Source: an uncultured Bacilli bacterium (GTDB lineage Bacteria > Bacillota_I > Bacilli_A > RF39 > UBA660). Taken from it: DNA of 64,000 nucleotides. Positions 1 to 18,432 of this stretch are shown piece by piece. The notes beneath the pieces were generated by a model, which saw nothing but the letters and a program-made list of their open reading frames with translations, had not been told where the DNA came from and did no database searches. The stretch spans positions 74,144 through 138,143 of the forward strand of contig CAKONI010000001.1 in NCBI GenBank assembly GCA_934097105.1, read 5' to 3'. Position numbers and translations under genes: made by a program. Positions within the stretch are counted from its first letter, which is position 1; each line of letters begins with the position of its first letter.

Positions 1-611
1 CTTTTGCTGTTTTCTTTAGGGAGTTTTATTTCTTTTATGGTTTCCATTTCTAAATTTAGGGTTTTTATAGCTTTTTGTGCTTCTTTTAGTTCTTCGTCTA
101 TATTTGATTTTAATAGTATAAAATAACCATTTTTTTTGGGAAGTTGGCATGCTAATTCTAGTAATATGTTTGTTTTTGCTACTGCTCGTGATGTTACTAT
201 GTCGAAGTTTTCTTCTTTGTAGTCTTCTATTCTTGATGTTACTGTTTTTATGTCTTTTAGATTAAGAGTTTTTATTACTTGATTTAAGAAGTTTATTCTT
301 TTTTCTAATGAGTCTAGTAGTGTTATTTTTAGATGAGGATATACTATTTTTAGGACTATTCCTGGGAAGCCTGCGCCTGTTCCTATGTCTATTATGTTTA
401 GATTTTGGTTTAGATCTATTACTTGTGCTATTGTTAGGCTATCGTAAAAATGTTTTAGATAAACTTCTTGTTTTTCGGTTATTCTTGTTAGATTTAGGTT
501 TTTGTTTGTTTCTATCAACATTTCATAGTATTTTTCTAAATCTTTTAACTGGTTTTTTGTGATTTTTATATTTAATTTTTCTAAATTTTCTATAAATTCT
601 TTTTCTGTCAT
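1..611 (-). CDS. rsmG: 16S rRNA m7G527 methyltransferase RsmG (GidB); C-terminus runs off the window edge
   Basis: My reverse-strand translation from the ATG at 611-609 gives [44 protein letters not shown]...[16 protein letters not shown], which contains the SAM-binding GxGxG. There is an ATGA start/stop overlap with mnmG, and the mnmG-rsmG order is conserved. Confidence 0.88.
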
Positions 612-2470
612 TTTTGCTCCTTTTTAAGATAAATCATTAGGACTGCGATATCACTTGGGTTTACTCCACTTATTCTCATTGCTTGTCCGATTGAGGTTGG
701 TTTTATTTTGTTTAGTTTTTCTCTTGCTTCTAGGGCTAAATTGTCTACTTTTTTGTAATCTATTTTTTCATCTAATTTTATATTTTCATATTCTTTTTGT
801 TTTTTTGCTTCTTCTTGTTCTTTTTTTATGTATCCATCATATTTTGCTATTATTTCTACTTCTTCTTGTTCTTTTTGATTATATTTTTTTGTTAGGAATG
901 TTTCTAATTTTTCTATTGTTACATTTGGCCTTTTTAATAGATTGAATAATGATATTTTGTCTGTGATTTTATTTATATTGTTATTTTCTAAAATTTCATT
1001 TATTTTTTTTGTGGGTGTTATTTCTTGATTTAGTTCTTTTAGGAGACTTTCTATGTTTTCTTTTTTTGTTTTAAATTTTTTGTAGTCTTCTTCGGTTACT
1101 AGTCCGATTTGTTTTCCATATTCAGTTAGTCTTAAGTCTGCGTTGTCGTCTCTTAATAGAAGACGATATTCTGCGCGAGATGTTAATAGTCTATATGGTT
1201 CTTTTGTTCCTTTTGTTACTAAATCATCTATTAGGACTCCGATGTAGGCTTCGTCTCTTCTTAAAATTAGTGGATTTTTTCCTTTTATTTTTTGATTTGC
1301 ATTTATTGCAGCGATTAGACCTTGGCATGCTGCTTCTTCGTAACCACTTGTTCCGTTTATTTGTCCTGCAGTGTATAGATTTTCTACTAGTTTTGTTTCT
1401 AGTGTTCTTTTTAAGTCTCTTGGATCTATTGCATCGTATTCTATTGCGTAGGCATATTTTAAAATTTCTGCATTTTCTAGTCCTGGTAAAGATTTTACCA
1501 TTTTTTCTTGAACGTCTTTTGGCATGCTTGAAGAGAAACCTTGAATGTATATTGTGTCGTATTGTTTACTTTCTGGTTCTAGGAATAATTGGTGTCTTTC
1601 TTTGTCGCTGAATCTTACTATTTTATCTTCGATTGATGGACAATATCTTGGGCCAATACCTTCGGCGTATCCTCCATACATTGCTGATTTTTTTAAGTTT
1701 TCATTTATTATTTTGTGTGTTTCTTTGGTTGTGTATATTAAATAACAATTTTCTTGATTTTTTGGATCGTATTTTATATCTTCTTGATAGGAAAATGTTA
1801 AGGGTAGGGGAGAGCCTGGTTCTATTTGTGTTTTGGAGTAGTCTATTGTGTCTTTTTTTATTCTTGGAGGGGTTCCTGTTTTTAGTCTTTGGAGAGTGAA
1901 TCCTATTTTTTCTAGATCTTTACTTAAATTAAGTTCTGTTTCTTCTCCGTGTGGTCCTTCCTTTTTTTTGGTACTTCCTATTAGTATATTTGAATTTAGA
2001 TAGGTTCCGGTTGTTAGAATTACTGCTTTTGCTTTTATTTCTTCTTTTTCTCTTGTAATTATTCCGTTTATTTTATTATTCTTTACAATTAGATGTTCTA
2101 CAAGTGTTTCTTTGATTGTAAGATTTTCTTGATTTTTTATCGTATTTATCATGTTTTTCTGATATTCTACTTTGTCTATTTGTGCACGTAGAGCCCAGAC
2201 TGCTGGTCCTTTTCTTGTATTTAATTTTTTTATTTGTAAAATAGATTTGTCAGTGTTTTTGGCCATTTCTCCGCCTAGAGCGTCTATTTCTCTTACAACG
2301 ATTCCTTTTGCTGGTCCGCCGATTGATGGGTTACATGGGGCATCTGCGATATTGTTTATATTTCCTGTTACTAATAAGGTTTTATTATTAAGTCTTGCTG
2401 ATGCGAGTGCGGCTTCACATCCAGCATGACCTCCGCCTACTATAATTATGTCATAATTCATTTTTTCCAC
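608..2470 (-). CDS. mnmG: tRNA uridine-5-carboxymethylaminomethyl modification enzyme MnmG (GidA)
   Basis: 620 aa ORF with N-terminal FAD fold [17 protein letters not shown] and [11 protein letters not shown], aligning full length with the GidA family. Confidence 0.97.
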
Positions 2471-2542
2471 CTCTTTTAAATCGTTTGTAGTATAGCATAT
2501 TTTTTTTATTTTAACAATAGAAAAGGTATTTATGTAATATTT

Positions 2543-2576
2543 AAAAAATCTACACTTAAGAAAGATTGTGTAGATC
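2543..2576 (-). terminator. Rho-independent terminator downstream of the ABC exporter gene
   Basis: Perfect 8-bp stem ATCTACAC/GTGTAGAT (2548-2555 / 2568-2575) followed on the minus strand by a T6 run (A-run 2543-2548 on plus). Confidence 0.6.
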
Positions 2577-2727
2577 TTTATTTAAAGGATTATTCCTATT
2601 ATAATAACTATTAATGTGATTGCTAAGAAAGCGATTATTTCTTTTTTGAGAATTGCTTTATATTTTTGATATTCTTATTTCTATTTCTTTATTCATGGTA
2701 AATCCTCCTGGAAAAGAAGTTTGTTTT

Positions 2728-4410
2728 TTAATTTTTATATAAGGTTTTATATTTCTCATTTGTTTTTATTAATTTGTTATGGGAACCTGTTGCTACTACT
2801 GTTCCTTTTTCTAATAGATATATTTTGTCTGAATCTATTATAGTTGATAGTCTGTGCGCTATTGTTATTATTGTGTGATCTTTTGATACTTTTTGGATTT
2901 GTTCTTGTATTTCTTTTTGTGTAATATTGTCTAGTGCTGAGGTTGCTTCATCGAATAGAATTATTTTACTTTGCTTTAAAATTGCTCTTGCAATGGCTAG
3001 TCTTTGTCTTTGACCTCCGGATAGATTTATTCCGCCTTCTTCTAGTAGCGTGTTATATCCTTCTGGTAGGCTTTCTATATAATTATGAATTTGTGCTTGT
3101 TTACAAGCTTCTTTCATTTCTTTGTCTGTTATTTTTCTATCTATTAATTTTAGATTTTCTTTTATTGTTAAGTTAAATATATAAGGATTTTGAGTTATTA
3201 TTGATATGTTATTTCTTAATGAATCTTCAGTTAAATCTTTTATATCTATATCGTCTATTGTTATTTTTCCTGTGTAATTATCATATGTTTTGGTTAATAG
3301 ATTAAATATTGTACTTTTTCCACTGCCACTTTTTCCTACGAGTGCAATGTTTTGATTTTCTTTTATTTCTAGTGATATATTTTTTAATACTTTTGTTTTT
3401 GTATAGGCGAAACTTACATTTTCAAATTTTATATTTCCTTTTGGATTTTTTAGGGTTTTTTTACCATATTTTTCTACAGGGTATTTTTCTTCGTTAAATA
3501 GTTCTTTTATTCTTTCTTTGGCTACTTTATAGTTTACTAAATACTCTTTTAGGGATGTGTAACTTAATACTAATCCAAAGATGTTTGTTTTATACATAAA
3601 TATTATTAGAAATCCTGTTAGGGTTATTTGATTTATTTTTATTAGATATATTCCCATTGCTAGGACTGCGAATGTTATTATTGCTTGCATTACTTCTGTT
3701 GTACTGTAAATTGATATTCTTAAGTCTGATGATTTGGTTTCTAATTTATTTCTTTTATCTAATGAGTCTCCGGCAATGTTTGTAAATTTTTTTGTTATGT
3801 TTAATAATTTTATGTCTTTTATGCCTTTTAGGACTTCATTTAGTATTGTTCCGTTTTTATCAGCGGTTTGCATTATTTCTTTATTTACTTTTTCATATTT
3901 TTTATAGGCTGCTTTTTCATATACGTATATTATTATTAATCCTAGTAAGAAGACTAGTCCTATGTAGATGTTTAGGAAAAATACATATATTAACATTGCT
4001 AGTTCTTTTATCATTGAGAACATGCTATACTGAACTATGTTAAATACATCATTTATGGCATTTGGATCTGTTTTTATTCTTTCTTGAAAATAGCCTGATG
4101 ATGTTTTATCGAAGTTTGTTGCTTTCATTTTGAATATTTGTTTTAGCATGTCTAGTCTGATGTTGTATAGAAGACTTTCTCTTATTTTCATTGATGAGTG
4201 ATTACTTATTTTACCTAGTACTGATTTTATTATTGTTATTAGTAATAGTGATAGAGAGAATGTAAATGCTAATTTTATATTTAACTTTGTTAGGTTTGTT
4301 AAAATATTAGCGTTTATTACTGGTATTAATACACTTATTGCTGTTGTTAGTAGTAATAGTATTGTATAAATTATTATTTTTGATTTTATTTTTGATAGAT
4401 ATTTTTTCAT
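2728..4410 (-). CDS. ABC exporter, fused permease/ATPase half-transporter (MsbA/bacteriocin-exporter type)
   Basis: 560 aa with an N-terminal six-helix TMD followed by an NBD carrying Walker A GKSGSGKST, signature LSGGQRQR and Walker B ILFDEATSALD. Confidence 0.85.
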   Translation of the reverse strand: MKKYLSKIKSKIIIYTILLLLTTAISVLIPVINANILTNLTKLNIKLAFTFSLSLLLITIIKSVLGKISNHSSMKIRESLLYNIRLDMLKQIFKMKATNFDKTSSGYFQERIKTDPNAINDVFNIVQYSMFSMIKELAMLIYVFFLNIYIGLVFLLGLIIIYVYEKAAYKKYEKVNKEIMQTADKNGTILNEVLKGIKDIKLLNITKKFTNIAGDSLDKRNKLETKSSDLRISIYSTTEVMQAIITFAVLAMGIYLIKINQITLTGFLIIFMYKTNIFGLVLSYTSLKEYLVNYKVAKERIKELFNEEKYPVEKYGKKTLKNPKGNIKFENVSFAYTKTKVLKNISLEIKENQNIALVGKSGSGKSTIFNLLTKTYDNYTGKITIDDIDIKDLTEDSLRNNISIITQNPYIFNLTIKENLKLIDRKITDKEMKEACKQAQIHNYIESLPEGYNTLLEEGGINLSGGQRQRLAIARAILKQSKIILFDEATSALDNITQKEIQEQIQKVSKDHTIITIAHRLSTIIDSDKIYLLEKGTVVATGSHNKLIKTNEKYKTLYKN

Positions 4411-4435
4411 ATGTACCTCTTATTCTTTTTTATTT

Positions 4436-5779
4436 TTATTTTCCTACACAAAAGTTTTTGAATAGGTTATCTAGTAGTTCTTCGGTGTATGTTTCTCCGA
4501 TTACTTCTCCAAGTGTTTGCCATATTACTTTTAGATCTATTTCTATTATATCTATTGGGCTTTCATTTTTTAGGCCTTCTTTTATGCTTGTTATGTTTTC
4601 TTTACAATTTTCTATTTTTTGGAGTTGTTCTATTGTTGAAACGTAGTAAAAATCATTTGTTTTTATTTTGTCTAGATTAAATAGTTCTTTTATTTTATCT
4701 GTTAGTGGTTTTAGACCATTTTCTTCTTGGGTGTTTGTTTTTACTATGTTTTTATCTTTTATATCTATATTTGTTTTTAAATCTGATTTATTTATTACTA
4801 TTATTCTTTGTTTTTGGCTTGTGTTTTTTATTAAATTTTTATCTTCTTGTGTTAGTTTTTCGTTGTTGTTTAGTACTAGGAGAATTAAATCTGCTTTTTC
4901 TATTGCTTTTTTTGATTTTTCTACTCCGATTTGTTCTACTATATCTTTTGTGTCTCTTATTCCGGCGGTATCTATGAGGTTTAGATTTATTCCTTCTAGG
5001 GTTAGGTTTGCTTCGACTATGTCTCTTGTTGTTCCTGGGATATTAGTTACTATGGCTTTTTCTTCTTGTATTAGTTTGTTTAGAATACTGCTTTTTCCAA
5101 CGTTAGGGCGTCCTACTATTGCTATATTTATTCCATTTGTTATTAATTTACTGTTTTTGGAATTTTCAATAATTTGATTTAAGTCTTGTTCTATGGTGTT
5201 TATTTCTTGTTTTATTTTGCTTGTTGTTATTTCTTCGATGTCTTGATATTCTGGGTAGTCTATATTTACTTCAATGTTACTTATTAGTTGTACTAATTTT
5301 TCTCTTAAGTTTTTTATTTTGCTTGTTGTTGTTCCGGTTAGATTATTTATTACTATTTGTCTTGCTTTGTCTGTTTTTACGTTTATTAAATCGTTTACTG
5401 CTTGGGATTTGGTTAAGTCTATTCGGCCGTTTAAAAATGCTCTTTTTGTGAATTCTCCAGGTTCTGCTAATCTTATTCCTTGTTTTAGTAAAAGTTCTAG
5501 GACTTTTTTTGTGGTTGCTATTCCTCCGTGGCAGTTTATTTCTACTGTGTCTTCGGTTGTAAATGTTTTTGGGGATTTCATTATTGTAATTAGTACTTCG
5601 TCTATTATTTGATTTTTTTCTTTTATGTAACCATAGTTTACTGTATGAGATTTTTTGTTTAATAAATTTATATTTGTTATTTTATTTACTTTTTCTATTG
5701 CTTCTTTTCCGCTTACTCTTATTATGGATATTGCTCCCACTCCAAGAGTTGTTGAAATTGCTGTGATACAATCGTTCAT
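4436..5779 (-). CDS. mnmE: tRNA modification GTPase MnmE (TrmE/ThdF)
   Basis: 447 aa with G1 GRPNVGKSS, G3 DTAGIR and the C-terminal CVGK motif. Confidence 0.96.
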   Translation of the reverse strand: MNDCITAISTTLGVGAISIIRVSGKEAIEKVNKITNINLLNKKSHTVNYGYIKEKNQIIDEVLITIMKSPKTFTTEDTVEINCHGGIATTKKVLELLLKQGIRLAEPGEFTKRAFLNGRIDLTKSQAVNDLINVKTDKARQIVINNLTGTTTSKIKNLREKLVQLISNIEVNIDYPEYQDIEEITTSKIKQEINTIEQDLNQIIENSKNSKLITNGINIAIVGRPNVGKSSILNKLIQEEKAIVTNIPGTTRDIVEANLTLEGINLNLIDTAGIRDTKDIVEQIGVEKSKKAIEKADLILLVLNNNEKLTQEDKNLIKNTSQKQRIIVINKSDLKTNIDIKDKNIVKTNTQEENGLKPLTDKIKELFNLDKIKTNDFYYVSTIEQLQKIENCKENITSIKEGLKNESPIDIIEIDLKVIWQTLGEVIGETYTEELLDNLFKNFCVGK

Positions 5780-5811
5780 AGTTCCTCCTTTACATTATAG
5801 AAAAAAGAAGA

Positions 5812-6423
5812 TTATTCTTCTTCTTTTGGTGTGATTACTACATGACGTTTTGGTCCTTCTTCTTCAGAATGGGTTTCTACGTTTGTCCAATTTGTTAAAG
5901 CGTTGTGTACTAATCTTCTTTCATAAGCATTCATAGGTTCTAGGTGCGCTTCTACTTTTGTTTTTGCTACTTCTTTTGCTATTTGTTTTATTTGTCTTTC
6001 TAATTTTATTCTTTTTTTGTTTTTATAATCGTTTACATCTAATTGAAATTTGTAATATTCTCCAACTTGGCTATTTACCATTTGATGAGTTATTGTTTGA
6101 AGAGCCTCGATTGTTTTGCCATTTTTTCCTATTAAGACTGAGGCGTCTTGCGCTAATAGGTTGAATAAAGGCATATTTTCTCTTTTTTTCATTTCTATTT
6201 TTACGTCTATTCCCATTAATTTTGTTATGTTTTGCAAGTAACTTTTTATTTCTTGGTTTAGTTCATATTTTGTTATTGCCTCGATTTCTATTTTTGTACC
6301 AAGTAATTTCTTTTTTGATCTTTTCATTCCTATGAATAGTTCATCTTCAGTTGCATTTAATGTTTCTTTTGCTTTTTCTAAGGCTTCTTCTTCAGTTTTT
6401 CCTATAAATGTTTGTATTTTCAT
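5812..6423 (-). CDS. jag: Jag/KhpB RNA-binding protein (KH + R3H domains)
   Basis: 203 aa with a KH-like core (LIGKNGKTIEALQ) and C-terminal R3H (ERRLVHNAL). It sits directly after yidC, as spoIIIJ-jag does in Bacillus. Confidence 0.85.
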   Translation of the reverse strand: MKIQTFIGKTEEEALEKAKETLNATEDELFIGMKRSKKKLLGTKIEIEAITKYELNQEIKSYLQNITKLMGIDVKIEMKKRENMPLFNLLAQDASVLIGKNGKTIEALQTITHQMVNSQVGEYYKFQLDVNDYKNKKRIKLERQIKQIAKEVAKTKVEAHLEPMNAYERRLVHNALTNWTNVETHSEEEGPKRHVVITPKEEE

Positions 6424-7346
6424 GCTTTTTTTCTCCTTCCTATGGCTAAATTTTGGAATATTGTAAATAATGATGTTGTTATCCAGTAAAATGCGATTGC
6501 TGTTGGTAGTGTAAATGACATAAATCCTATGAATATTGTCATTCCTGTTGTCATCATTTTTTGTTGTTTGGCCATTTGATCATTCATTGCCATTGAAGGG
6601 TTTAGTTTATATGAGAAGTATGTTGCGGCGATTAGTATTACGCATACTAGTATGTAATACCAGTGTCCTGTTGTCATTCCTACGAATGGGGTTGTTCCCA
6701 TGTTTAATCCTATAAATTGTTCTTCAAAGATTGCGGGAACTCTATTGATTGCTTCCCAAAATGCGAATAAGATTGGTAATTGAATGAAAGCAAATAGGCA
6801 CCCTGATAATGGTTTTATGTCATATTTTTTGTAAACCAGCATCATTTCTTGTCCTTTTTTTTGCATTGATTCATTATCTGTTTTACCTTGATATTTTTTT
6901 TCTATTCTATCTATTTCTGGTTTTGCATCTTTCATTTTTTCTGATTGAAGCATTGTTTTTCTTGTCATTGGGAATAAAATTAATCTTAATATTAATGTTA
7001 TTATTATGATTGATACTGCGGTTGAACCTACGAGCATTCCTATTTTTACTATGATGTATCCTAGTGGCCTTACGAAGAACGTATTCCATAATCCTTCATA
7101 TTTTCCAGATATTTTCATTTCTTTACATTCTGGTAATTTTTCTATGTTTACTTTATTTTCTTCATAGATTTTTAAGATTTCTTTGTCGGTTGGTCTACAT
7201 ATTATGTTTTCTGTAATTGTTTGACCTGTTTCTTCATTTTTTACTATTTTTCCGTCTTTATCTTTTAGGTTTTGTGTACATCCGGTTAAGGTTACTATTA
7301 ATAATATTAATACTAATATTTTAGTTATTTTTTTTGTTTTTTTCAT
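6420..7346 (-). CDS. yidC: Membrane protein insertase YidC (SpoIIIJ/YqjG-type lipoprotein)
   Basis: 308 aa with a lipobox LTGC after the signal helix and a multi-pass Oxa1/YidC core. The rnpA-yidC-jag order is conserved. Confidence 0.92.
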   Translation of the reverse strand: MKKTKKITKILVLILLIVTLTGCTQNLKDKDGKIVKNEETGQTITENIICRPTDKEILKIYEENKVNIEKLPECKEMKISGKYEGLWNTFFVRPLGYIIVKIGMLVGSTAVSIIIITLILRLILFPMTRKTMLQSEKMKDAKPEIDRIEKKYQGKTDNESMQKKGQEMMLVYKKYDIKPLSGCLFAFIQLPILFAFWEAINRVPAIFEEQFIGLNMGTTPFVGMTTGHWYYILVCVILIAATYFSYKLNPSMAMNDQMAKQQKMMTTGMTIFIGFMSFTLPTAIAFYWITTSLFTIFQNLAIGRRKKA

Positions 7347-7680
7347 TTACTTCTCCTTTTACTTGTTTAAATATTTTTATTACTTCTTTTTCCATTTGCT
7401 GATAAGTTAATTCTAATGCCGTTTTTCTTGCTATTAATATATAGTTTTGATTTGTTTCGTATATTTCTTTGTTATTATCTATTATTGATTTTATTCTTCT
7501 TTTTAATTTATTTCTTGTTACGGCATTTCCGATGTTTTTTGTAAATGTTATTCCAAATTTTGGTAAATTTTCATTGTTTTTTTCTTTATTTAATATGAAG
7601 TATTTTGTTGCTTTTCCATGTCTTTTTTTTATTATTCTACTAAAGTCTTTTGCTTTTTTCACTATATTTTGTTTTTTCAT
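7321..7680 (-). CDS. rnpA: Ribonuclease P protein component
   Basis: Basic protein containing GNAVTRNKLKRRIK (RNR-motif region). I prefer the ATG at 7680-7678, which is preceded by AAGAGG; the ORF-track start at 7698 is probably too long. Confidence 0.88.
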   Translation of the reverse strand: MKKQNIVKKAKDFSRIIKKRHGKATKYFILNKEKNNENLPKFGITFTKNIGNAVTRNKLKRRIKSIIDNNKEIYETNQNYILIARKTALELTYQQMEKEVIKIFKQVKGEVNEKNKKNN

Positions 7681-7695
7681 ATTACCTCTTATAAT

Positions 7696-7718
7696 CAAAA
7701 ATCCACTTTGAAGTGGAT
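7696..7718 (-). terminator. Hairpin plus T-run between rpmH and rnpA (attenuator/terminator candidate)
   Basis: Stem ATCCACT/AGTGGAT with a 4-nt loop, followed on the minus strand by T5. The hairpin arm reads TTATCCACT on the minus strand. Confidence 0.4.
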
Positions 7719-7722
7719 AATA

Positions 7723-7848
7723 TTATTTTGATAAGTTTTTTCTGCCTTTTCTTCTTCTTTTATTTATAATACCTGATTTAATACGAGCGAAAAAGCCATG
7801 TTTCTTTTTCATTTTTCTATTATTAGGTTGAAAAGTTCTTTTACTCAT
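7723..7848 (-). CDS. rpmH: 50S ribosomal protein L34
   Basis: Below the ORF-track cutoff. My translation is [41 protein letters not shown] (41 aa), with GGAGG 7 nt upstream. The position upstream of rnpA and divergent from dnaA is canonical. Confidence 0.93.
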
Positions 7849-7917
7849 GAATTGCACCTCCAAACTTAATCGCTATTATTATATAAAGAAAAGTAGGTAA
7901 TTGTCAACAATTTTTCA

Positions 7918-8072
7918 CTTATTAACAAAATTAATGTTTATTAACATCACAATTTTAACAATTGTTAATACTGTTAACAAAAAATTTGTTGAAATTTGTT
8001 GAAAAGTATTTTATAGTATATAAACAAAGGAAATTATATGTTAAAAACTTTGTTAATAAGTTTGTTAATAAA
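7918..8072. promoter_or_regulatory. Cluster of TTATTAACA / TGTTAATAA boxes upstream of dnaA (candidate DnaA-box variant; oriC left half and dnaA promoter)
   Basis: CTTATTAACA at 7918-7927, TTTATTAACA at 7937-7946, TGTTAATAC at 7963-7971, TGTTAATAAG at 8051-8060 and TGTTAATAAA at 8063-8072. Confidence 0.55.
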
Positions 8073-8154
8073 TTTTTTTAGTTTTCAAAATAGAAAAAAT
8101 GTATTACAATGTATTTAGGTTGTAATTTATACTTTTAAGTGGGGAGATGGTATT

Positions 8155-9537
8155 ATGGATAACAATTCTTTATGGCATAAAGTCCTTGATAATATTAGTA
8201 ATATAGTTGACCCTTTGTCATATAGAACCTGGTTTGAAAATATTGATTTTATTGATATTAAAGATGATTCTATTAGGTTAGTTGTTCCGGTTGTTTTGTA
8301 TAAAAATCATTTGGATAGAAATTATCGGGATATTATTTTGGAAGCGTTTAATAACTTATTAACAAAACCTGTTGATAACATAATTTATGTTTTAAAAGAA
8401 AATTTAGAAGACTTATTAAGTATTGAAAATAAGAATTGTTCTAATGAGAAATTTGATAATAGAGTTTTAGATGATGAATCTTTTGTTAATCATGTTTCTA
8501 ATTTAAAAAAAGACTATACTTTTGATTCTTTTGTAGTAGGAGAGTCTAATAAATTTGCTCAGGCGGCGGCGATGGCTGTTGCGGAAAATCCTGGTACTAT
8601 GTATAATCCTTTATTTATATATGGTAATAGTGGACTTGGTAAAACTCATTTGATGCATGCAATTGGTAATTATATTGAACAAAGGCATAAGAAAAAGGTT
8701 TTGTATGTTACTAGTGATGATTTTATGAATGATTTTACTGGTTTAATTAGAAAGAGTAATAATGATAATAATCTTAATTATATAGAGTTTTTTAAGAACA
8801 AATATAGAAATGTTGATGTTTTAATTATTGATGATATTCAATTTTTAGGGGGTGCTGAGAAGACTCAACAAGAATTTTTTCATACTTTTAATAACTTATA
8901 TAATGATAGTAAGCAAATTATTGTTTCTTCTGATAGGAGTCCTGAGGATTTAAAGGTTCTTGAGGATAGACTTAGAACTAGATTTGCATGGGGGCTTCAG
9001 GTTGATATTAGTCCTCCGGAGTTTAATCTTAAGGTTGCTATTATTAAGAAGATATTAAGAAGAGAAGATGTTAAATTAAATGATGATGTTATTTGTTATA
9101 TTGCTTCGAATGTTGGTAATGATGTAAGACAACTTGAGGGTGCTCTTACTAGACTTATTGCATATTCAGCAATTATGTGTGTTAGTAATATTACTGTTGA
9201 TTTTGCAATGGAGGCTTTAAAAGATTTTACTAAGAAAGACTTTATTACAGATCAAAATGATATTAGAAGAATTCAGAAAAATGTTGCTAGTTTTTATAAA
9301 ATTTCCTTTGAGGATATGAAGTCTAAAAAGAGGACTCCTAATCTTGCTATTCCTAGACAAGTTGCTATGTATTTGTGTAGAAAACTTACTGATGAATCTT
9401 TTGAGAGAATTGGTATTGAGTTTTCTGGAAAAAATCACGCTACTGTGATTCACGCTTGTAATAAAATTGAAAAAGAGATGGAAAGTAATAAAGATTTGAG
9501 GGATGCAATTGAGGATATAAAGAAGCAATTAACATAA
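8155..9537 (+). CDS. dnaA: Chromosomal replication initiator protein DnaA
   Basis: 460 aa with Walker A GNSGLGKTHL, Walker B LIIDDIQF and C-terminal domain IV (IPRQVAMYLCRKLT...GGKNHATVIHA). RBS GGGGAG. Confidence 0.98.
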   Translation: MDNNSLWHKVLDNISNIVDPLSYRTWFENIDFIDIKDDSIRLVVPVVLYKNHLDRNYRDIILEAFNNLLTKPVDNIIYVLKENLEDLLSIENKNCSNEKFDNRVLDDESFVNHVSNLKKDYTFDSFVVGESNKFAQAAAMAVAENPGTMYNPLFIYGNSGLGKTHLMHAIGNYIEQRHKKKVLYVTSDDFMNDFTGLIRKSNNDNNLNYIEFFKNKYRNVDVLIIDDIQFLGGAEKTQQEFFHTFNNLYNDSKQIIVSSDRSPEDLKVLEDRLRTRFAWGLQVDISPPEFNLKVAIIKKILRREDVKLNDDVICYIASNVGNDVRQLEGALTRLIAYSAIMCVSNITVDFAMEALKDFTKKDFITDQNDIRRIQKNVASFYKISFEDMKSKKRTPNLAIPRQVAMYLCRKLTDESFERIGIEFSGKNHATVIHACNKIEKEMESNKDLRDAIEDIKKQLT

Positions 9538-9549
9538 AAATGTTAAAAC

Positions 9550-9665
9550 TGTTAATAGTTATTAACAAGATATTTTATAAAAAAGTACTGATACATATAG
9601 AAAAAATGAGTTATTAACAATATTAACAGTAATAATATAAATAATAATATAAATATAAAAGAAAG
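9550..9665. promoter_or_regulatory. dnaA-dnaN spacer: box cluster plus AT-rich tract (candidate oriC right half / DUE)
   Basis: TGTTAATAG at 9550-9558 abuts TTATTAACA at 9559-9567, followed by TTATTAACA at 9611-9619 and ATATTAACA at 9620-9628. Then comes a pure A/T run of TAA/TAT triplets (gtaataatataaataataatataaatataaaag) at 9629-9665. Confidence 0.5.
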
Positions 9666-9676
9666 AAGGTTTTAAG

Positions 9677-10795
9677 ATGAAATTTAAAATTAAAAAAAAT
9701 TTATTGTTAGAAGCACTTAATAATGTTTCAAAGGCTATATCTAGTAAAAATATTATTCCGATACTTTCAGGGATAAAAGTTGAGGTTTTAAGTGATAAGT
9801 TAATACTTACGGCTTCAGATAATGATGTTACTATTCAAACTGTTTTGGAAAGTAGTGATAATTTAATAATTAATTCCACAGGAAGTATTGTTATTAAGGG
9901 TAAATATATTCTTGATATTATAAGGAAACTTGATGAGGATTTTGTTAATATTGAAATTGTAGATGATCATAAGATTATGATTTATACTGAAAATAGTAAG
10001 TTTAATCTAAATGGTATTGATGTTAGGGAATATCCTGATATTAGTTTTGACTTTTCTGGTAATTTTGTAAAGATGAGTTCTAATGATTTTAGGGAGATTG
10101 TAAACCAAACTAATTATGCTTGCTCACTTGATGAGGCTAGAATTGTACTTATGGGTGTTAATATTAAGGTTAATAAGAAAAAGTTTGAATGTAGTGCGAC
10201 TGATTCTTATAGGCTTGCGTTAAAGGAGTATGTTCTTGATGATGATTTTACTGGTGATATTGATGTTATTGTGCCAAGTAGAAATTTGAGTGAACTTTTA
10301 AAGGTTTTACCATCTTCTGATGATTCTTTTATTGAAATGTATTTCTTTAATAATAAGGTTATATTTAAGTTTGATAATATTGTTTTCCAATCTAGACTTA
10401 TTAGTGGTACATATCCAAATACTAAGAATTTAATACCTAGTGATTCTTTATTTGATTTAAAGATAAATACTAATTTATTTTATAATATGGTTGATAGGGC
10501 TAGTGTACTTAATAATGATAAGGATAATAATATTGTTACTTTGGAAATTAAGAATAATTTACTTAAGATTACTTCGATGTCTTTAGAGATTGGTAAGGCT
10601 CAAGAAAAGGTTAGTATTGATTGTGATAATGATATTAAAATTTCTTTTAGTAGTAAGTATATGCTTGATGCTCTTAGGACTATTAAGAGTGATGAAGTTA
10701 TTCTAACTTTTGTTGGGGAAATTAAGCCAATTTTAATTAGGGAGGAAAATAATAGTGATCTTATGTGTTTAATACTTCCTATTAGAACTTATTAA
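9677..10795 (+). CDS. dnaN: DNA polymerase III beta sliding clamp
   Basis: 372 aa with full-length beta-clamp organisation (MKFKIKKNLLLEALNNVSKAISSKNIIPILSGIK...), directly after dnaA. Confidence 0.96.
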   Translation: MKFKIKKNLLLEALNNVSKAISSKNIIPILSGIKVEVLSDKLILTASDNDVTIQTVLESSDNLIINSTGSIVIKGKYILDIIRKLDEDFVNIEIVDDHKIMIYTENSKFNLNGIDVREYPDISFDFSGNFVKMSSNDFREIVNQTNYACSLDEARIVLMGVNIKVNKKKFECSATDSYRLALKEYVLDDDFTGDIDVIVPSRNLSELLKVLPSSDDSFIEMYFFNNKVIFKFDNIVFQSRLISGTYPNTKNLIPSDSLFDLKINTNLFYNMVDRASVLNNDKDNNIVTLEIKNNLLKITSMSLEIGKAQEKVSIDCDNDIKISFSSKYMLDALRTIKSDEVILTFVGEIKPILIREENNSDLMCLILPIRTY

Positions 10796-10797
10796 TT

Positions 10798-10821
10798 AGT
10801 CAGTTTTGCTGACTTTTTTTA
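10798..10821 (+). terminator. Rho-independent terminator after dnaN
   Basis: Stem AGTCAG/CTGACT (10798-10803 / 10809-10814), 5-nt loop, T7 run. Confidence 0.7.
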
Positions 10822-10924
10822 TTATTTTTTTCTTTTTCTACAAATTTCTTGTTATTTCGATGTTTTTTGATGTTATATATATTATGCAGTTTAAAACTGT
10901 TATAAATTTTGGGGGGATTTTTGT

Positions 10925-11383
10925 ATGAAATATGAAATTAATGATGAGACTTTGGCTATTATTCCTTATTCTGATACTAAAACTAAGGTAATTGAGGTTA
11001 ATGATGAGTATGTAGTGGATTCTACTCCATATTCTATTATGGAACATAGTTGTGAGTATTTTGGAAGTTCACTTATGGGGAGAGTTAATGGTACAAGAAG
11101 TATTTTAGGTAGTATTTATAAAACACCTATTTTTGTTGAGGAATCGAAAAAACTTATTTTTTTTCCTACTGAGGCTATTGATTCTGCTAATGTTAGTTGG
11201 GTTTCTTACAGGAATATTAGTAATGTTGAGAAATTTAATAACAAATCTATTGTTAAATTTAATAATGGGAGTGTTGTAATTATTGATTGTCCTTATTTTT
11301 CTATTAGGAATCAAATTTTTAGGTGTAATATGCTTGAGTCTATTTCAAATTCTAGAAAATTAAGTGTTAAAAAAGACGATTAA
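10925..11383 (+). CDS. ComK-family (competence transcription factor-like) protein
   Basis: 152 aa. The segment LAIIPY...KVIE...YVVDSTPYSIMEHSCEYFGSSLMGRVNGT...YKTPIFVEESKKLIFFPT...NVSWVSY parallels B. subtilis ComK (IAVLPE...KIIE...PLQIVDRSCRFFGSSYAGRKAGT...HKPPIMVDPSNQIFLFPT...CGWISH). Confidence 0.55.
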   Translation: MKYEINDETLAIIPYSDTKTKVIEVNDEYVVDSTPYSIMEHSCEYFGSSLMGRVNGTRSILGSIYKTPIFVEESKKLIFFPTEAIDSANVSWVSYRNISNVEKFNNKSIVKFNNGSVVIIDCPYFSIRNQIFRCNMLESISNSRKLSVKKDD

Positions 11384-11499
11384 ATTTGTTAAAATCGTTT
11401 TTTTTTAGTCTTTTTTATGATATAATAGTATCGTAAGTACAGGAGTACTAGTTTAGGGAGTTGATGCTATTTTGGGGTGTTTTTTAATATTTATTTGAT

Positions 11500-14515
<3,016 letters not shown>

Positions 14516-14524
14516 GAGGTATTT

Positions 14525-16975
14525 ATGGAAGAGTTTAAAGATAGATTAGAAGAGAATAATATTGTCAATGAGATTGAGAATTCTTTTCTTGAGTATTCGA
14601 TGAGTGTTATTATTTCAAGAGCACTTCCTGATTTACGTGATGGTTTGAAGCCGGTTCATCGTAGAATTTTGTATTCTATGTATGAGTCTGGGTATACTCC
14701 TGATAAGCCTCATAAGAAGAGTGCTAGAATTGTTGGGGATGTTATGGGTAAGTATCATCCTCATGGGGATTCGAGTATTTATGATGCTATGGTAAGAATG
14801 GCACAGGATTTTAATTATAGGTATATGCTTGTTGATGGACATGGTAATTTTGGTAATATTGAGGGTTATGGCGCTGCAGCGATGCGTTATACTGAGTCTA
14901 GACTTTCTAAGATTTCTTTGGAACTTCTTAGAGATATTAACAAAAATACTGTTGATTTTGTTGATAACTTTGATGAATCTGAGAAAGAACCACAAATTTT
15001 ACCGTCTAGGTTTCCTAATATTCTGGTTAATGGTACGATGGGAATTGCTGTTGGTATGGCTACTAATATACCGCCTCATAATTTAGGAGAGGTTATTGAT
15101 GGTTGTGTTGCTTATATTGATAACAATGATATTACTGTCGCTGAACTTATGAATTATATTAAGGGCCCTGATTTTTCAACTGGTGCGATTATTTTGGGTA
15201 ATAGTGGTATTAGAAAGGCTTATGAAACAGGTAAGGGTAGTATTACTATAAGGAGTAAGGCTACTATTGTTGAAAAACATGGTAGGCAGTATATTGTTAT
15301 TGATGAGGTTCCTTATGGTGTTAATACGTCAGAACTTAAGAATAAGGTTGCTGAACTTGTTCATAATAAGGTAATTGATGGTATTTCTGATTATCATACT
15401 GATTTGAAAGAGGGAATTAAGATTACTATTACTTTGAAGAGGGATGCTAATGCTCAAATTGTTCTTAATAATTTGTATAAGCATACTCAGTTTCAAACTA
15501 ATTATGGTATTAACTTTTTGATGCTTGATAATGGTGTTCCTAAGAGTTTGGGTCTTAAGGATATTATTTCTAAGTATATTGATTATCAAAAGGAGATTAT
15601 TTATAGAAGAACTAAATTTGATTTAGATAAGGCTGAGAAAAGGGTTCATATATTAGAGGGTTTGAAGATTGCTCTTGATAATATTGATGAAATTATTAAA
15701 CTTTTGAAGGCTGCGAAGAATGATGATGTTGCTAGGGAAGGTTTGATGAGCAGATTTAGTCTTTCTGAAGCGCAGGCTAATGCTATTTTGGAAATGAAAC
15801 TTAGACGTTTGACTGGTTTGGAAAGAGAAAAAATTGAGAATGAACTTAATGAACTTTTGGAAAAGATTAAGGAGTATAGAGAAATTCTTGCTTCTGTTGA
15901 GAGAGTTTTGGCTATTATTAGGGAAGAACTTTTGGAAATTAAACAGAAGTATGCTGATGAGAGACGTACTGATATTGATATGACTGCTATTGATTATATT
16001 GAGGATGAATCTTTGATTCCTAATGATAAAGTCATGGTATCATTGACTAATAACGGATATATCAAACGTTTGTGTGTTGATACTTATAAATCTCAAAACC
16101 GTGGTGGTGTTGGAATTAAGGGTATGTCTGTTAATGAGGAGGATTTTGCTAAATTGTTAATAACTTGTAATTCTCATGATTATTTGTTGTTCTTTAGTAA
16201 TTTTGGCAAGGTTTATAGAGTTAAGTGTTATGAGATACCAGAATTTTCTAGGCAATCTAAGGGTGTACCTATTGTTAATATCTTACCTTTGGATAAGGAT
16301 GAGGTTGTTAATACTATTATTTCTGTTTCTAAGGATGATGAGTGTAGGTATTTGATGTTCTTCACGAAGTGTGGATTAGTTAAGCGTACGGATATTAATG
16401 AGTTTGATTCGATTCGTAAGGGAGGAAAGATTGCTATTGGTCTTAAGGAGAATGATCAACTTATTAGTGTTAAGAAGACTAATGGCGATGATGAGGTTAT
16501 AATTGCTTCTAATTCTGGACGTATGGTTAGATTTAATGAGAATGAGGTTCGTATTATGGGACGTAGTGCTTCTGGTGTTAAGGGTATTGAACTTGGCTCT
16601 TCACTTGTTATTGGTGCGGAGGTTGTTGATAAGTCTCAACTTGTTCTTGTCGTTACGGAAAAGGGTTATGGTAAGAAGACTGAGGTTGATGAATATAGGC
16701 TTACTCATAGAGGAAGTAAGGGCGTTAAGGCTTTGAATGTTACGGATAAGAATGGTTTGATTATTGGATTTAAGTCTGTTGTAGGTGACGAGGATATTAT
16801 TATTACTACTGATAGTGGTGTTGTAATTCGTTTGGATGTGTCTAAGGTATCTACTTTAAGACGTAATACTCAAGGAGTTAGATTAATGCATTTGAAGGAT
16901 CATCAAAAGGTTACTTCTGTAACTGTTACTGATAAGGCTGATGAGGATGAGCCTGCTGTAGAAGAGGAACACTAG
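14525..16975 (+). CDS. gyrA: DNA gyrase subunit A
   Basis: 816 aa with the QRDR region [13 protein letters not shown], the catalytic Tyr context [10 protein letters not shown] and C-terminal beta-pinwheel repeats. Confidence 0.98.
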
Positions 16976-16992
16976 ATAGTGTTCTTTTTTTT
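16965..16992 (+). terminator. Rho-independent terminator overlapping the gyrA stop codon
   Basis: Stem GAACAC/GTGTTC (16967-16972 / 16979-16984), a 6-nt loop containing the TAG stop, and a T8 run. Confidence 0.65.
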
Positions 16993-17014
16993 GGCAGAAA
17001 ATGGATTTTTATTA

Positions 17015-17030
17015 TGTTTCACGTGAAACA
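17015..17030. promoter_or_regulatory. parS site 1 (ParB/Spo0J binding)
   Basis: TGTTTCACGTGAAACA is a perfect 16-bp palindrome matching the Firmicute parS consensus. Confidence 0.85.
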
Positions 17031-17183
17031 TTTTTGAATAGCATTTTATAATGTTAAATATGTTTATTATTTTTAGAATAATTTTCTGTTGTTAATAAGT
17101 GTTAATAAGTATATTTTTCTGTTGTTTTTTACTAGGAAATTTAATTATTATAAATTTGTTATGTTTATTTTAAAGTTGATAAT

Positions 17184-17199
17184 GGTTTCACGTGAAACG
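17184..17199. promoter_or_regulatory. parS site 2
   Basis: GGTTTCACGTGAAACG; the central 14 bp are a perfect palindrome and both outer positions deviate from consensus. Confidence 0.7.
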
Positions 17200-17437
17200 T
17201 TTTAAAGTAGTTTGAAGTTATATATGTTTTTTCAAATTATTTTAGTTGTTGATTATTGTTAATAAGTTATTATTTCACATTTTATTTAGTATTTTTGTTT
17301 TTATTTTAATATTATAGTGATTTATATTTGCAAATTGGTTATTTATTTTGTAGTTGTATTTATGTTGAAATCTTTAATTGTTAGTGCATTTCATTTTAAT
17401 TCTACAGTTTTATTCGATTATTTGGCATGTTATTGTA

Positions 17438-17453
17438 TGTTTCACGTGAAACG
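17438..17453. promoter_or_regulatory. parS site 3
   Basis: TGTTTCACGTGAAACG, 15/16 to the palindromic consensus. Confidence 0.8.
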
Positions 17454-17679
17454 TTGTTATAAGCAATTACTTTATATGTTAGAAGTTTTGACTGTTATAT
17501 ATTCTATCTTTTTTTATTGTAGCCAAATGTTAATAAGTGTTGATAACTTATTTTGACTTTAATAATTGTTTTTTTAATTAGTATAATTATGAGATATTTG
17601 ATTAGTAATAGTTTATTTAGAAATGAATAAAAAATGTGTATTAAATACTTTTATGTTAATAGTTATAAAGAATAATAGA

Positions 17680-17695
17680 TGTTTCACGTGAAACA
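17680..17695. promoter_or_regulatory. parS site 4
   Basis: TGTTTCACGTGAAACA, 16/16. Confidence 0.85.
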
Positions 17696-17841
17696 TTCTA
17701 ATATAATATGTAACTATAGGTATATTTTTTTATAGAGGGTTTAATATTTGTGAATGGATTATTTATCTTATAGTTGTATTTATATTAAAAACTTTAATTG
17801 TTAATAATTACTTTTATTTAATTATTTAATTTTTTATTGTA

Positions 17842-17857
17842 TGTTTCACGTGGAACA
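17842..17857. promoter_or_regulatory. parS site 5
   Basis: TGTTTCACGTGGAACA, 15/16; the G variant is also found in known parS sites. Confidence 0.8.
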
Positions 17858-18119
17858 TTTAATTGTTTTGCATTTTAAAGTGTGTATTTTGCATAAGTAC
17901 GGTTGTAGAATTATTTTATATATTAATTTATGTTGAAAATAAGAATTTTTAATTTATATTATTTTTTTTTGTATTAGTATATTTATTATGTTTTTTTATA
18001 AAAAATAATGATTAGTTTTTGCTTATGATTGTTAAATTGTTTATAGTTAGAGATAATTTTTTAATTGTTAATAAGTATTTTCATTTATTTTATATTTATT
18101 CCAATTTTTGGTAAAAAAA

Positions 18120-18135
18120 TATTTCCCGGGAAATA
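18120..18135. promoter_or_regulatory. Noc-binding site (NBS) 1
   Basis: TATTTCCCGGGAAATA is a perfect palindrome equal to the published B. subtilis NBS core ATTTCCCGGGAAAT. It lies within a 35-bp direct repeat (18101-18135). Confidence 0.75.
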
Positions 18136-18317
18136 ATTGTAAATTTTGTAATTATTTGGATTTATAGATAAATATGTTTTTGTTAATAAGTTTTTTTATG
18201 TATGTTGTTATTATTTTGTTTAGTATTATTATTAATAGTTTTTAAGTTTTATAATTAATGGATTTGAATGTTGTAAGGTTATAATTTTTGTTATTGTTAA
18301 TTTTTATGAGAAAAAAA

Positions 18318-18346
18318 TTGACTTTTTTGTTATTTTATTTTATTAT
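18318..18346 (+). promoter_or_regulatory. sigma-A-type promoter of ffs
   Basis: TTGACT (18318-18323), 17-nt spacer, TATTAT (18341-18346). Confidence 0.55.
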
Positions 18347-18352
18347 TTTTTT

Positions 18353-18432
18353 GTGCAACACATATGGTTGAAACAGGTCAGGATCGGAAGATAGCAGCCT
18401 TAAGATCCTCTGTGTGTGTGCACTTTTTTTTT
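18353..18432 (+). ncRNA. ffs: Signal recognition particle RNA, short 4.5S-like form
   Basis: ACAGGTCAGGATCGGAAGATAGCAGCC matches the domain IV core AGGUCAGGUCCGGAAGGAAGCAGCC, with a compensatory AUC/GAU stem around the GGAA tetraloop. The 5' GUGCAACACA pairs with the 3' UGUGUGUGCAC, and it ends in a U9 run. Confidence 0.85.

Follow-up and report, generated by a model that had tools for sequence, protein, structure and literature searches.

The strand composition of this 64,000-nucleotide stretch of DNA from an uncultured gut bacterium of the Bacilli (the window) does not switch at dnaA, where the genes diverge; instead, the plus strand carries an excess of G and T on both sides. The reading that we consider best, at a probability of roughly 40%, is that replication initiates at the dnaA origin and that only the rightward fork is productive. 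All three explanations raised by the first-pass annotation, an origin further to the left, extremely asymmetric replichores and unidirectional replication, are live options.

Gene order and strand composition around dnaA

Gene identities in the window come from NCBIfam and Pfam matches together with the genes called on the contig. The left-arm block (1..7848) lies on the minus strand and, according to NCBIfam and the genes called on the contig of the window itself, consists of a partial rsmG (1-611), mnmG (608-2461), an ABC exporter (2728-4410), mnmE (4436-5779), jag (5812-6423), yidC (6420-7346), rnpA (7321-7680) and rpmH (7723-7848). On the plus strand, full-length dnaA (8155..9537; TIGR00362, 510 bits) is followed by dnaN (9677-10795), a ComK-like ORF (10925-11383), recF (11500-12603), gyrB (about 12521-14515) and gyrA (14525-16975), and essentially every gene of the right arm (8155..60130) is encoded on this strand, based on Pfam and per-ORF skews. 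The order of the right-arm genes is Bacillus-like and origin-proximal (dnaX, recR, holB, pth, mfd, spoVT, metS and ksgA, and further yabG, divIC, tilS, ftsH, lysS, clpC, gltX, cysS and a sigH-like gene); an 844-aa plus-strand ORF at 57596-60130 had been labelled a putative secA, which agrees with its translation. Bacillus-like origin-proximal synteny is retained in both arms. To the left of dnaA, the minus strand carries 60 of 68 genes (88%), and these genes are therefore head-on to the fork direction implied by the skew.

The two arms differ in the composition of their sense strands, which is A+C-rich at silent sites, and lagging-like, in the left-arm block but G+T-rich in the right arm, where dnaA and each gene from dnaN to gyrA are leading-like. 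We chose four-fold degenerate sites to remove amino-acid effects. On the sense strand, these sites hold 559 A, 99 C, 10 G and 82 T in the left genes, compared to 963 A, 130 C, 428 G and 3914 T in the right genes (chi-square 1493, p ~ 0). Read on the plus strand, the fractions to the left and right of dnaA are.745 and.72 for T,.109 and.177 for A,.132 and.079 for G, and.013 and.024 for C. Third positions behave similarly: in six minus-strand left genes the plus-strand GC3 skew is +0.24 to +0.90 and the AT3 skew is -0.53 to -0.65 (-0.24 to -0.90 and +0.53 to +0.65 on the sense strand), while in 18 plus-strand right genes the corresponding plus-strand values are +0.46 to +0.81 and -0.31 to -0.59, with +0.67 and -0.44 for dnaA and +0.75 to +0.81 and -0.45 to -0.59 for the plus-strand dnaN-gyrA block (9677..16975). 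The sense-strand third-position biases of the two gene sets, rather than being equal, are opposite. First codon positions of the left genes are also shifted in the same lagging-like sense, and the suggestion that the left origin-flanking genes have a long-term lagging-strand composition is borne out at third, four-fold and first positions. The left-arm genes appear to have been copied 'backwards' over a very long time.

The cumulative G-C and T-A curves are monotonic in the window, with a minimum at position 1 for both and maxima near the right end (63949 and 59281, respectively); neither curve has an extremum at 7.9-9.7 kb of the 64-kb window, where an origin at dnaA had been expected to place one. 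Third positions, four-fold sites and cumulative curves all agree with the first-pass annotation that composition does not switch at dnaA, and its hand counts are exact (positions 1-60, T34 A9 G10 C7; 961-1020, T37 A12 G8 C3; 12901-12960, T22 A10 G23 C5). The G+T excess that it described for the plus strand persists to ~60.1 kb, but past this point the T excess is gone (AT skew +0.07) and only the G excess is retained. The slope of the raw GC skew does change at ~8 kb, from +0.05 on the left to +0.38 on the right, and the raw AT skew goes from -0.40 to -0.11, because a sense-strand effect of gene orientation (G, ~ +0.16; A, ~ +0.15) adds to a constant strand term (~ +0.24 GC and ~ -0.25 AT).

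Extent of the polarity in the species, genus and family

In contigs of the same species, the polarity is unbroken from about -58 kb to +64 kb (window coordinates), and its leftward part, by way of rsmG, UDG, prfA, mreB, ddl and uvrA, is independent of gene strand; any origin to the left in this species is more than 66 kb away from dnaA. The polarity is likewise unchanged at three loci on one long-read contig of a sister species, which extend from about -108 kb to +217 kb and lie about 87-108 kb to the left of dnaA, about 20-40 kb to the left (the left-arm UDG locus) and about 210-217 kb to the right. The sampled extent corresponds to between roughly one quarter and one half of a chromosome; chromosomes or contigs in the family measure 1.34 Mb, 1.04 Mb and 0.71 Mb.

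Comparison with relatives, which the first-pass annotation had proposed, yielded the same pattern in each of the nine genus-level species for which both flanks could be evaluated. Among 55 family-level species, 27 are window-type, 4 are mirror-type, 7 are canonical and 17 are weak, such that the window type is more frequent than any other state across the wider family. The favoured direction of the polarity matches the direction in which the box-pair and trinucleotide module between dnaA and dnaN points. Besides weak canonical switches at dnaA, no clean origin-type switch was found in ~330 family loci. The polarity is old, being genus-wide and common in the family, and the divergent gene orientation at dnaA is ancestral; the head-on left-arm genes have kept this orientation since before the genus diverged. 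Relatives include genomes labelled Ca. Faecimonas, Onthousia and Coprovivens and many 'Bacilli/Tenericutes bacterium' MAGs.

In three clade species the conserved smc-sigA-dnaG block has a leading-like composition and in two others a lagging-like one, which indicates that blocks do change replication direction. In three family members (L213, L217 and L227) dnaA lies among co-oriented genes with no divergence, and in some members it does not adjoin rpmH; the neighbourhood of dnaA is thus not fixed in the family.

Conserved origin elements at dnaA

The rpmH <- | -> dnaA dnaN synteny includes non-coding spacers of 291 bp and 139 bp that flank dnaA. The rpmH-dnaA spacer (7864..8154) contains putative dnaA promoters and a cluster of candidate DnaA boxes of the variant TTATTAACA / TGTTAATAA (at 7919, 7938, 7962-7980, 8051 and 8063); boxes and promoter-like blocks are conserved in an alignment of 11 genus-level sequences, which represent 10 distinct species and a second locus of one species. 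The dnaA-dnaN spacer (9538..9676, plus strand) holds an origin-unwinding-type module, in which the tandem box pair GTTATTAACAATATTAACAG (9610-9629) is directly followed by the A-centred trinucleotide run TAATAATATAAATAATAATATAAATATAAA (9630-9659) and then by the dnaN ribosome-binding site; the trinucleotides resemble DnaA-trio repeats, and the sequence beside dnaN is AT-rich. This module hardly varies among 16 genus-level species, with no case of decay or loss found among them, and its architecture is retained across all family classes; in one relative (L008), GTTATCCACATTATCCACAC occupies the equivalent position.

No perfect TTATCCACA boxes were found, the variant TTATTAACA being present at the homologous positions. 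There are 30 matches to TTATTAACA against 3.85 expected (an 8-fold excess), and 17 of the 30 fall between 7919 and 18189. We infer that TTATTAACA is this lineage's variant of the DnaA box, to which DnaA would bind. Seven exact copies (17090 to 18189) lie in the non-coding region that follows gyrA on the plus strand (16976..18346; 1.4 kb, 21% GC), together with parS sites at 17015, 17438, 17680 and 17842 and a weaker one at ~17185; another parS is at 18892. In all, parS gave five matches versus 0 expected, and the parS cluster adjoins the dnaA region. Two palindromes resembling Noc-binding sites, TATTTCCCGGGAAATA, are at about 18121 and 18934. There is no skew switch in this parS-bearing region (16976..18346).

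The trinucleotide run is A-rich although its host strand is 72-75% T at neutral sites. Such an A-rich run on a T-rich strand and the near-invariance of the module despite saturated silent sites point to selection, and hence to function; on this sequence evidence, strong purifying selection acts on the oriC elements at dnaA. Conservation of the module makes abandonment of the origin less easy to accept and one-way replication more credible.

The bipartite oriC of the Bacillus subtilis type has DnaA-box clusters upstream of dnaA and, between dnaA and dnaN, a box pair with DnaA-trios and an AT-rich unwinding element. The arrangement closely resembles it in its gene order on each side, in the box clusters in both spacers, in the tandem box pair that leads directly into A-centred trinucleotides and then the start of dnaN, and in the nearby parS and Noc-site-like elements. 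It differs in that the box consensus has drifted to TTATTAACA, in that no rRNA operon follows gyrA in the window and, chiefly, in that strand composition is not inverted at the origin.

A proposed single productive fork and the alternatives

In the reading that we favour, replication would still start at the conserved DnaA-dependent origin flanking dnaA, and the productive fork would move in the dnaA-to-dnaN direction only, the leftward fork never being established or coming to a halt after no more than a few hundred bases. All of the left arm would be copied by the rightward-travelling fork arriving from the left, and the plus strand would be the exposed lagging-strand template on both sides of dnaA, gaining C-to-T and A-to-G changes everywhere to give one continuous G+T-rich polarity. 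This reading supposes that the conserved module probably still fires, that fork direction is what the skew would report, that the leftward fork was presumably lost and that the rightward fork may travel the whole way round the chromosome. It is consistent with the lack of a skew switch at dnaA by any measure, the leftward run of the polarity to about -58 kb with agreement of the sister-species loci, the uniformity of the evaluable genus-level species (9/9) and the preponderance of window-type family members (27 versus 4 mirror-type and 7 canonical). The near-invariant dnaA-dnaN module and conserved upstream box cluster, the clustering of excess TTATTAACA at the origin beside the parS sites, and the lack of a clean origin-type switch elsewhere in ~330 family loci also argue for it, and there is a precedent among related wall-less Bacilli (Mycoplasma).

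Several observations weigh against a single productive fork. Among natural main chromosomes with DnaA origins, we know of none that replicates one way. About half of the genome would be head-on, including rpsF, rpsR, rplI, rpmE, rpmH and rpsB as well as infC-rplT, prfA and dnaB, and yet the ancestral orientation of these genes predates the divergence of the genus and has been retained. A skew switch could lie outside the sampled quarter to half of the chromosome, the mirror-type relatives require a separate explanation, and the differences in the smc-sigA-dnaG block between species imply that rearrangements also shift blocks between compartments. Conservation of the module could stem from regulation of dnaA and dnaN rather than from initiation. 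Moreover, nothing near the origin was recognised as a barrier element, an RTP/Tus-like gene or a dif site. No Pfam family of a plasmid-type Rep initiator or a Tus/RTP-like barrier occurs among the left-arm genes and the scanned window ORFs (10 ORFs had no match, and several right-end ORFs, including the 844-aa one, were left out of the scan), and no dif-like site occurs in the window, the left-arm loci, the clade loci or the aligned rpmH-dnaA spacer, a search that a divergent dif would escape. Finally, surveys of monotonic skew name no genuine Firmicutes chromosome: the monotonic-skew ('rolling circle') genomes listed in PMC8941118 and PMC7111523 include no Firmicutes, and the 'Firmicutes' entries seen in the survey table of PMC7858055 are Listeria records of 570-810 kb labelled as plasmids.

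Known cases offer partial parallels. Pseudoalteromonas chromids are described as large replicons that replicate unidirectionally, their direction being read from the skew with coverage as a check (Xie et al. 2021, PMC7858055), and share with our loci a constant skew sign across the origin, here over the sampled stretches only; however, these chromids are plasmid-derived with plasmid-type replication, while here a main chromosome carries dnaA, dnaN and a classical oriC. Mycoplasma capricolum and M. mycoides are relatives of the window lineage in the low-GC Bacilli/Mollicutes radiation. For the former, the title of Miyata & Fukumura 1997 (cited in PMC1798306) refers to forks that progress asymmetrically just after initiation; for M. 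mycoides SC, PMC1798306 mentions that the skew is abnormal where oriC is expected and offers unidirectional replication as a speculation. Those cases involve transient asymmetry or noisy skew in single species, whereas here the polarity is extreme and clean, extends over tens to hundreds of kb and is found in many species.

The main rival, which we rate only a little below the favoured reading, places the active origin to the left of dnaA, at a distance of more than 66 kb and probably of over 100 kb, with ordinary bidirectional replication proceeding from there. The dnaA locus would then sit within the rightward replichore, the box clusters at dnaA would serve dnaA/dnaN regulation or mark a dormant origin, and the left-arm orientation would be inherited from a time when the origin was at dnaA. 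This accounts equally well for the continuous polarity, and a dnaA gene off the shift point is documented elsewhere: in nearly 20% of sequenced chromosomes, the distance between dnaA and the skew shift point exceeds 5% of the chromosome, and in about 100 chromosomes the replichores are three-fold asymmetric (SkewDB, PMC8941118). In having dnaA off the compositional switch, our loci resemble this recognised minority of genomes (PMC8941118; Chen et al. 2020, PMC7111523), but differ from them in a skew among the strongest imaginable, in a conserved oriC module at dnaA and in gene orientation that runs counter to the skew throughout the left arm as sampled. The unfixed dnaA neighbourhood (L213, L217 and L227, and rpmH not always adjacent) and the differing polarity of the smc block among clade species also favour a displaced origin, and a stretch of ~325 kb with a single polarity is compatible with one replichore in a genome of 1.0-1.3 Mb. 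Nevertheless, the sequence reached contains neither an origin-type switch nor a second module of boxes and trinucleotides, and an abandoned module should decay at saturated divergence, rather than being near-invariant in 16 species. Two intact DnaA-dependent origins should both fire, resulting in a switch at dnaA. The 27:4 excess of window over mirror types, together with the 9/9 genus-level species, would need shared ancestry or a conserved new site, and the parS cluster adjoins dnaA.

It is improbable that replication is canonical and bidirectional from dnaA, with the asymmetry due to a chromosome-wide, strand-specific process unrelated to fork direction, such as a recurrent single-stranded phase of one particular strand. 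Gene orientation that diverges at dnaA (88% of 68 left genes on the minus strand and essentially all called right ORFs on the plus strand to ~60 kb), Bacillus-like origin-proximal synteny on both arms and the conserved origin module would all suit such a process, as would the unusually large asymmetry (four-fold AT skew 0.6-0.74, GC skew 0.5-0.8). Asymmetry of this size is nearer to that of animal mitochondrial DNA than to that of typical bacteria. However, left-arm genes of either strand share the plus-strand composition, as a replication-type strand effect predicts, and to our knowledge no bacterial mechanism marks one physical strand on both replichores. A transcription-linked bias was rejected, because left and right genes are opposite in sense-strand composition.

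Independent assemblies and four-fold-site counts effectively refute the idea of an artefact or a recent event, be it misassembly, a recent inversion of the segment or codon usage taken for strand skew. Raw GC skew alone (+0.05 left versus +0.38 right) is open to misreading, and metagenome contigs can be chimeric; one contig of the sister species has a junction that looks suspicious, at an IS copy. However, independent assemblies of different samples agree exactly at the rpmH|dnaA junction and in its flanks, and arrangement and skew repeat in the 9/9 genus-level species that could be evaluated and in dozens of species of the family. Inversion leaves the sense-strand composition of a gene as it was, and the left genes have fully reached equilibrium at four-fold sites. 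A canonical origin with a gene-orientation term cannot yield the same sign on both sides, because that term would need to both exceed and trail the replication term.

If initiation at dnaA with one productive rightward fork is the correct reading, it may extend to a whole lineage of uncultured gut Bacilli, although we propose this only tentatively: their main chromosome would be replicated one way from a conserved DnaA-dependent oriC, with the terminus beside the origin. Roughly half of the genes in such a lineage, many ribosomal-protein genes included, would be permanently head-on to replication.

Strand composition on either side of dnaA

The plus strand of the window does not change its compositional bias at dnaA. 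The first-pass annotation had proposed this from three hand counts on the plus strand, which were exact on recount, and from an apparently opposite sense-strand composition of the genes on the two sides. Indeed, the cumulative curves of G-C and T-A climb monotonically from the first position of the window, without an extremum at dnaA, and the two gene sets are opposite in sense-strand composition at four-fold sites. The counts are A559 C99 G10 T82 for six left genes and A963 C130 G428 T3914 for 48 right ORFs (chi-square 1493, left versus right). Read on the plus strand, the left and right fractions are.745 and.72 for T,.109 and.177 for A,.132 and.079 for G, and.013 and.024 for C. Plus-strand third-position skews of individual genes are likewise equal in sign and size on either side of dnaA.

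The sliding profile of the window, which has a GC content of ~28%, does change at 8 kb: to the left, the plus strand has a GC skew of ~+0.05 to +0.10 and an AT skew of ~-0.40, and to the right, a GC skew of ~+0.40 and an AT skew of ~-0.10. The slope of the raw skew changes here because the genes flip strand, which contributes an additive orientation term, while the strand term does not flip; the sense strand is slightly rich in G and A. We considered a compositional discontinuity at oriC and dropped it, as genes of the same orientation in the two arms differ only slightly. Past an 844-aa ORF with its end at 60130, the stretch 60131-63400 has lost the T excess (AT skew ~+0.07) and kept the G excess. 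This segment, with a short 112-aa ORF and a 330-aa ORF (AT3 ~0), looks like DNA of recent acquisition or recent rearrangement.

The gene identities in the first-pass annotation were confirmed, and the Bacillus-type origin-proximal order is classical on both flanks. The rpmH-to-rsmG block is canonical apart from a 560-aa MsbA-like ABC exporter between mnmE and mnmG (2728-4410, minus strand). The interval between dnaN and recF, which in Firmicutes usually holds a small S4-like RNA-binding protein, encodes a small ComK-family protein (10925-11383, plus strand; Pfam ComK, 1e-36). In the right arm, which is otherwise Bacillus-like, an ordinary T-box leader (27965-28151) lies ahead of the methionyl-tRNA synthetase gene, and ten consecutive plus-strand ORFs of 177-279 aa at 30795-37840, with no Pfam match, could form a lineage-specific tandem protein family.

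Extent and recurrence of the single polarity

Using exact-protein look-ups, we recovered more of the window's own contig and conspecific contigs (95.6% nucleotide identity). Leftward from rsmG, the gene order is a long Noc-like ParB gene, parA, parB, mscS, abgT, ychF, a P-type ATPase gene, rpsF, ssb, rpsR, rplI and dnaB, followed by rlmH, UDG, prfA, prmC, spoIIR, murA, rpmE, rpiB, mreB, hpf, ddl, uvrB and uvrA. The Noc/ParB-like gene adjoining rsmG (12601-13923 of locus L035, left of the window) is unusually long (440-450 aa), and the parA-parB pair after it is normal. At silent sites, the plus strand is G+T-rich to window coordinate ~-58 kb, regardless of gene strand. The minus strand carries 60 of the 68 genes called left of dnaA, which places them head-on to forks moving as the skew implies; on the right, essentially every gene is on the plus strand.

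This composition recurs in the left block of a sister species (UDG 86% identical), whose long-read contig (ERZ28750334 contig_4657, 857 kb) was sampled at three places through copies of an IS30-like element. Distances in this species are measured from a dnaA position estimated from gene spacing in the window species, with collinearity assumed. On this scale, the polarity is the same ~87-108 kb to the left, in the infC-rplT, rpsB-tsf-frr, pgk-tpiA and spo0A region, where 15 of 18 genes are head-on, at the UDG locus ~20-40 kb to the left, and in the co-oriented smc-sigA-dnaG block ~210-217 kb to the right. Near 221.7 kb of contig_4657 (locus L148), a truncated IS copy marks a transition from strong skew on the smc side (1-9300) to near-neutral composition on the ruvAB-spoVA side (11196-20800), with gene strand unchanged. 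The junction, which we rejected as a clean terminus, may reflect a chimeric join of long reads, recent transfer or a boundary of an unusual kind. The 396-aa IS30-like transposase (loci L138-L148) is identical in genomes of very different skew strength and is itself near-neutral (sense GC3 -0.09, AT3 -0.23), evidence that it has spread among species recently.

We classified the loci of relatives by four-fold sites and discarded a classification by GC3, which is misleading because the obligatory ATG and TGG codons raise its baseline above zero. A DnaA-centred scan of species-representative genomes yielded genus-level relatives (DnaA 74-87% identical), and the switch was absent in all nine species with both flanks evaluable (plus-strand AT4 -0.29 to -0.52 on the left and -0.37 to -0.73 on the right). 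A gyrA-centred scan added 55 species that are more distant and share the synteny: 27 lack the switch as the window does, 4 are mirror-type, 7 are canonical with modest skew in every case, and 17 are weak. A family member with a complete chromosome of 1.34 Mb (OZ007025.1) is of the mirror type. A canonical origin together with a gene-orientation term cannot yield the same sign on both sides, and thus the strand-constant term is real. Among ~330 loci, we found no clean switch from strong to opposite strong skew; the only hits were L206, with a canonical switch of modest size at dnaA, and L148, with its odd junction. Two loci called mirror-type (L017, L009) were withdrawn, as dnaA is not adjacent to rpmH in either, and an origin-type switch near a glycosyltransferase gene (L082, L090, L121) was dropped, being absent at four-fold sites. 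The lineage carries the sporulation genes spoIIR, gerQ, spoIIIAH, spo0A, sigF, spoVA, spoVT, yabG and yabP (L044, L048, L140, L148), although the labels of several of its MAGs read Tenericutes or Mycoplasma.

Conserved elements of the origin region

Perfect TTATCCACA DnaA boxes are absent from the window, and with one mismatch allowed the 29 matches (26 expected) are unclustered; this box was set aside for a lineage variant, TTATTAACA, which occurs 30 times against 3.85 expected, 17 of them within 7919-18189. The spacer between dnaA and dnaN follows a layout conserved in the family: a tandem pair of boxes leads into an A-centred trinucleotide run, and the ribosome-binding site of dnaN comes last. 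This module reads GTTATCCACATTATCCACAC in a relative (L008) and GTTATTAACAATATTAACAG at the equivalent position in the window (9610-9659). It is almost invariant in 16 genus-level species, and species of the canonical, mirror and window types all retain its architecture. Neutral sites on the strand that carries the A-rich run are otherwise 72-75% T, a contrast that speaks for selection. From the conservation of the module we infer its origin function. The rpmH-dnaA spacer holds conserved box triplets and promoter-like blocks; in two clade species (L158/L258 and L163), an extra insertion of ~600-730 bp, apparently with an ORF on the dnaA strand, lies between rpmH and the DnaA-box cluster.

A non-coding region of 1.4 kb and 21% GC follows gyrA (16976-18346), at the position that an rRNA operon occupies in B. 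subtilis. It contains seven exact TTATTAACA boxes (plus strand, TTGTTAATAAGT), a Noc-site-like palindrome, TATTTCCCGGGAAATA, and, by pattern scan, four parS sites of the TGTTTCACGTGAAACA type and a weaker one near 17185; the scan gave 5 parS matches in the window against 0 expected. A small SRP RNA (18347-18432), an ordinary feature, directly precedes a tadA-like deaminase gene, beyond which lie a further parS and a second Noc-site-like palindrome (18888-19053). Because of the conserved module, the clustered boxes, the parS sites and the Noc-site-like palindromes, the dnaA locus looks like a maintained, classical origin region. Searches for dif with B. subtilis, E. coli and generic consensus patterns over the window, left-arm, sister and clade loci returned chance matches or IS ends only, and the spacers adjoining a Xer-like gene held nothing.

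Models of replication and their consequences

The opposite sense-strand composition of the two gene sets excludes a transcription-linked bias. With the plus strand behaving as the exposed lagging-strand template on both sides of dnaA, we infer that forks have long passed rightward across the whole region. Our leading explanation, to which we give a probability of about 0.4, is that initiation would occur at the dnaA origin with the rightward fork alone productive, such that replication would be effectively unidirectional and the terminus would adjoin the origin. Consistent with this model are the conservation of the putative unwinding-type module, the bias toward this module's own direction, the failure to find another switch in the loci reached, and the large size of the head-on compartments; on L138, another contig of the same sample, most genes are likewise head-on.

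We rank second, with only slightly lower probability, a displaced active origin lying over 100 kb leftward of dnaA; the dnaA locus would then fall within one replichore. There is precedent for this, as in nearly 20% of chromosomes dnaA lies away from the shift point (SkewDB, PMC8941118); dnaA neighbourhoods vary within the family, and the single-polarity span sampled is still compatible with one replichore in a genome of 1.0-1.3 Mb. The dnaG-sigA-trmK-smc block is leading-like in three clade species (L230, L233, L235) and lagging-like in two (L237, L232), and thus blocks move between compartments and composition re-equilibrates quickly; this does not discriminate between a displaced origin and one-way replication from dnaA. 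The contigs of the three leading-like loci end just past smc, which suggests a repeat at that point. A strand-specific process unrelated to replication is improbable, and an artefact is scarcely credible, with some probability left unassigned to any of these explanations; the rpmH-dnaA junction is identical across independent assemblies.

Unidirectional replication has been deduced from skew and confirmed by coverage in Pseudoalteromonas chromids (PMC7858055). A genuine Firmicutes chromosome is absent from the published lists of monotonic skew: the RefSeq genomes listed by Chen et al. (PMC7111523) include no Firmicutes, and the Firmicutes among the entries shown from the unidirectional-replicon survey (PMC7858055) are Listeria records labelled plasmids. 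For M. mycoides SC, one report (PMC1798306) describes abnormal skew at oriC and speculates on unidirectional replication; among its references is a 1997 paper on M. capricolum whose subject is the asymmetrical progression of forks immediately after initiation. In contrast to all of these systems, the clade described here combines an extreme, clean skew in many species with a conserved oriC and a conflict with gene orientation.

Under either model, many essential, highly expressed genes have been head-on since before the genus diverged, which is unexpected for a PolC-type Firmicute. Skew usually inverts at a DnaA origin, and the essential and highly expressed genes of Firmicutes are usually co-oriented with replication; both rules are broken clade-wide, not in a single odd genome. 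One-way replication would make this the first main chromosome so replicated, and a natural experiment in tolerating genome-wide conflict between replication and transcription. A moved origin would show that an apparently intact oriC module can outlast its role as the main origin and that essential genes spanning 60-100+ kb can remain head-on for very long. In either case, for these abundant gut organisms, origin calls based on dnaA or on boxes will be wrong, as will coverage-based estimates of growth rate that assume a symmetric origin-terminus layout, and checks of MAG assembly by skew will misfire.
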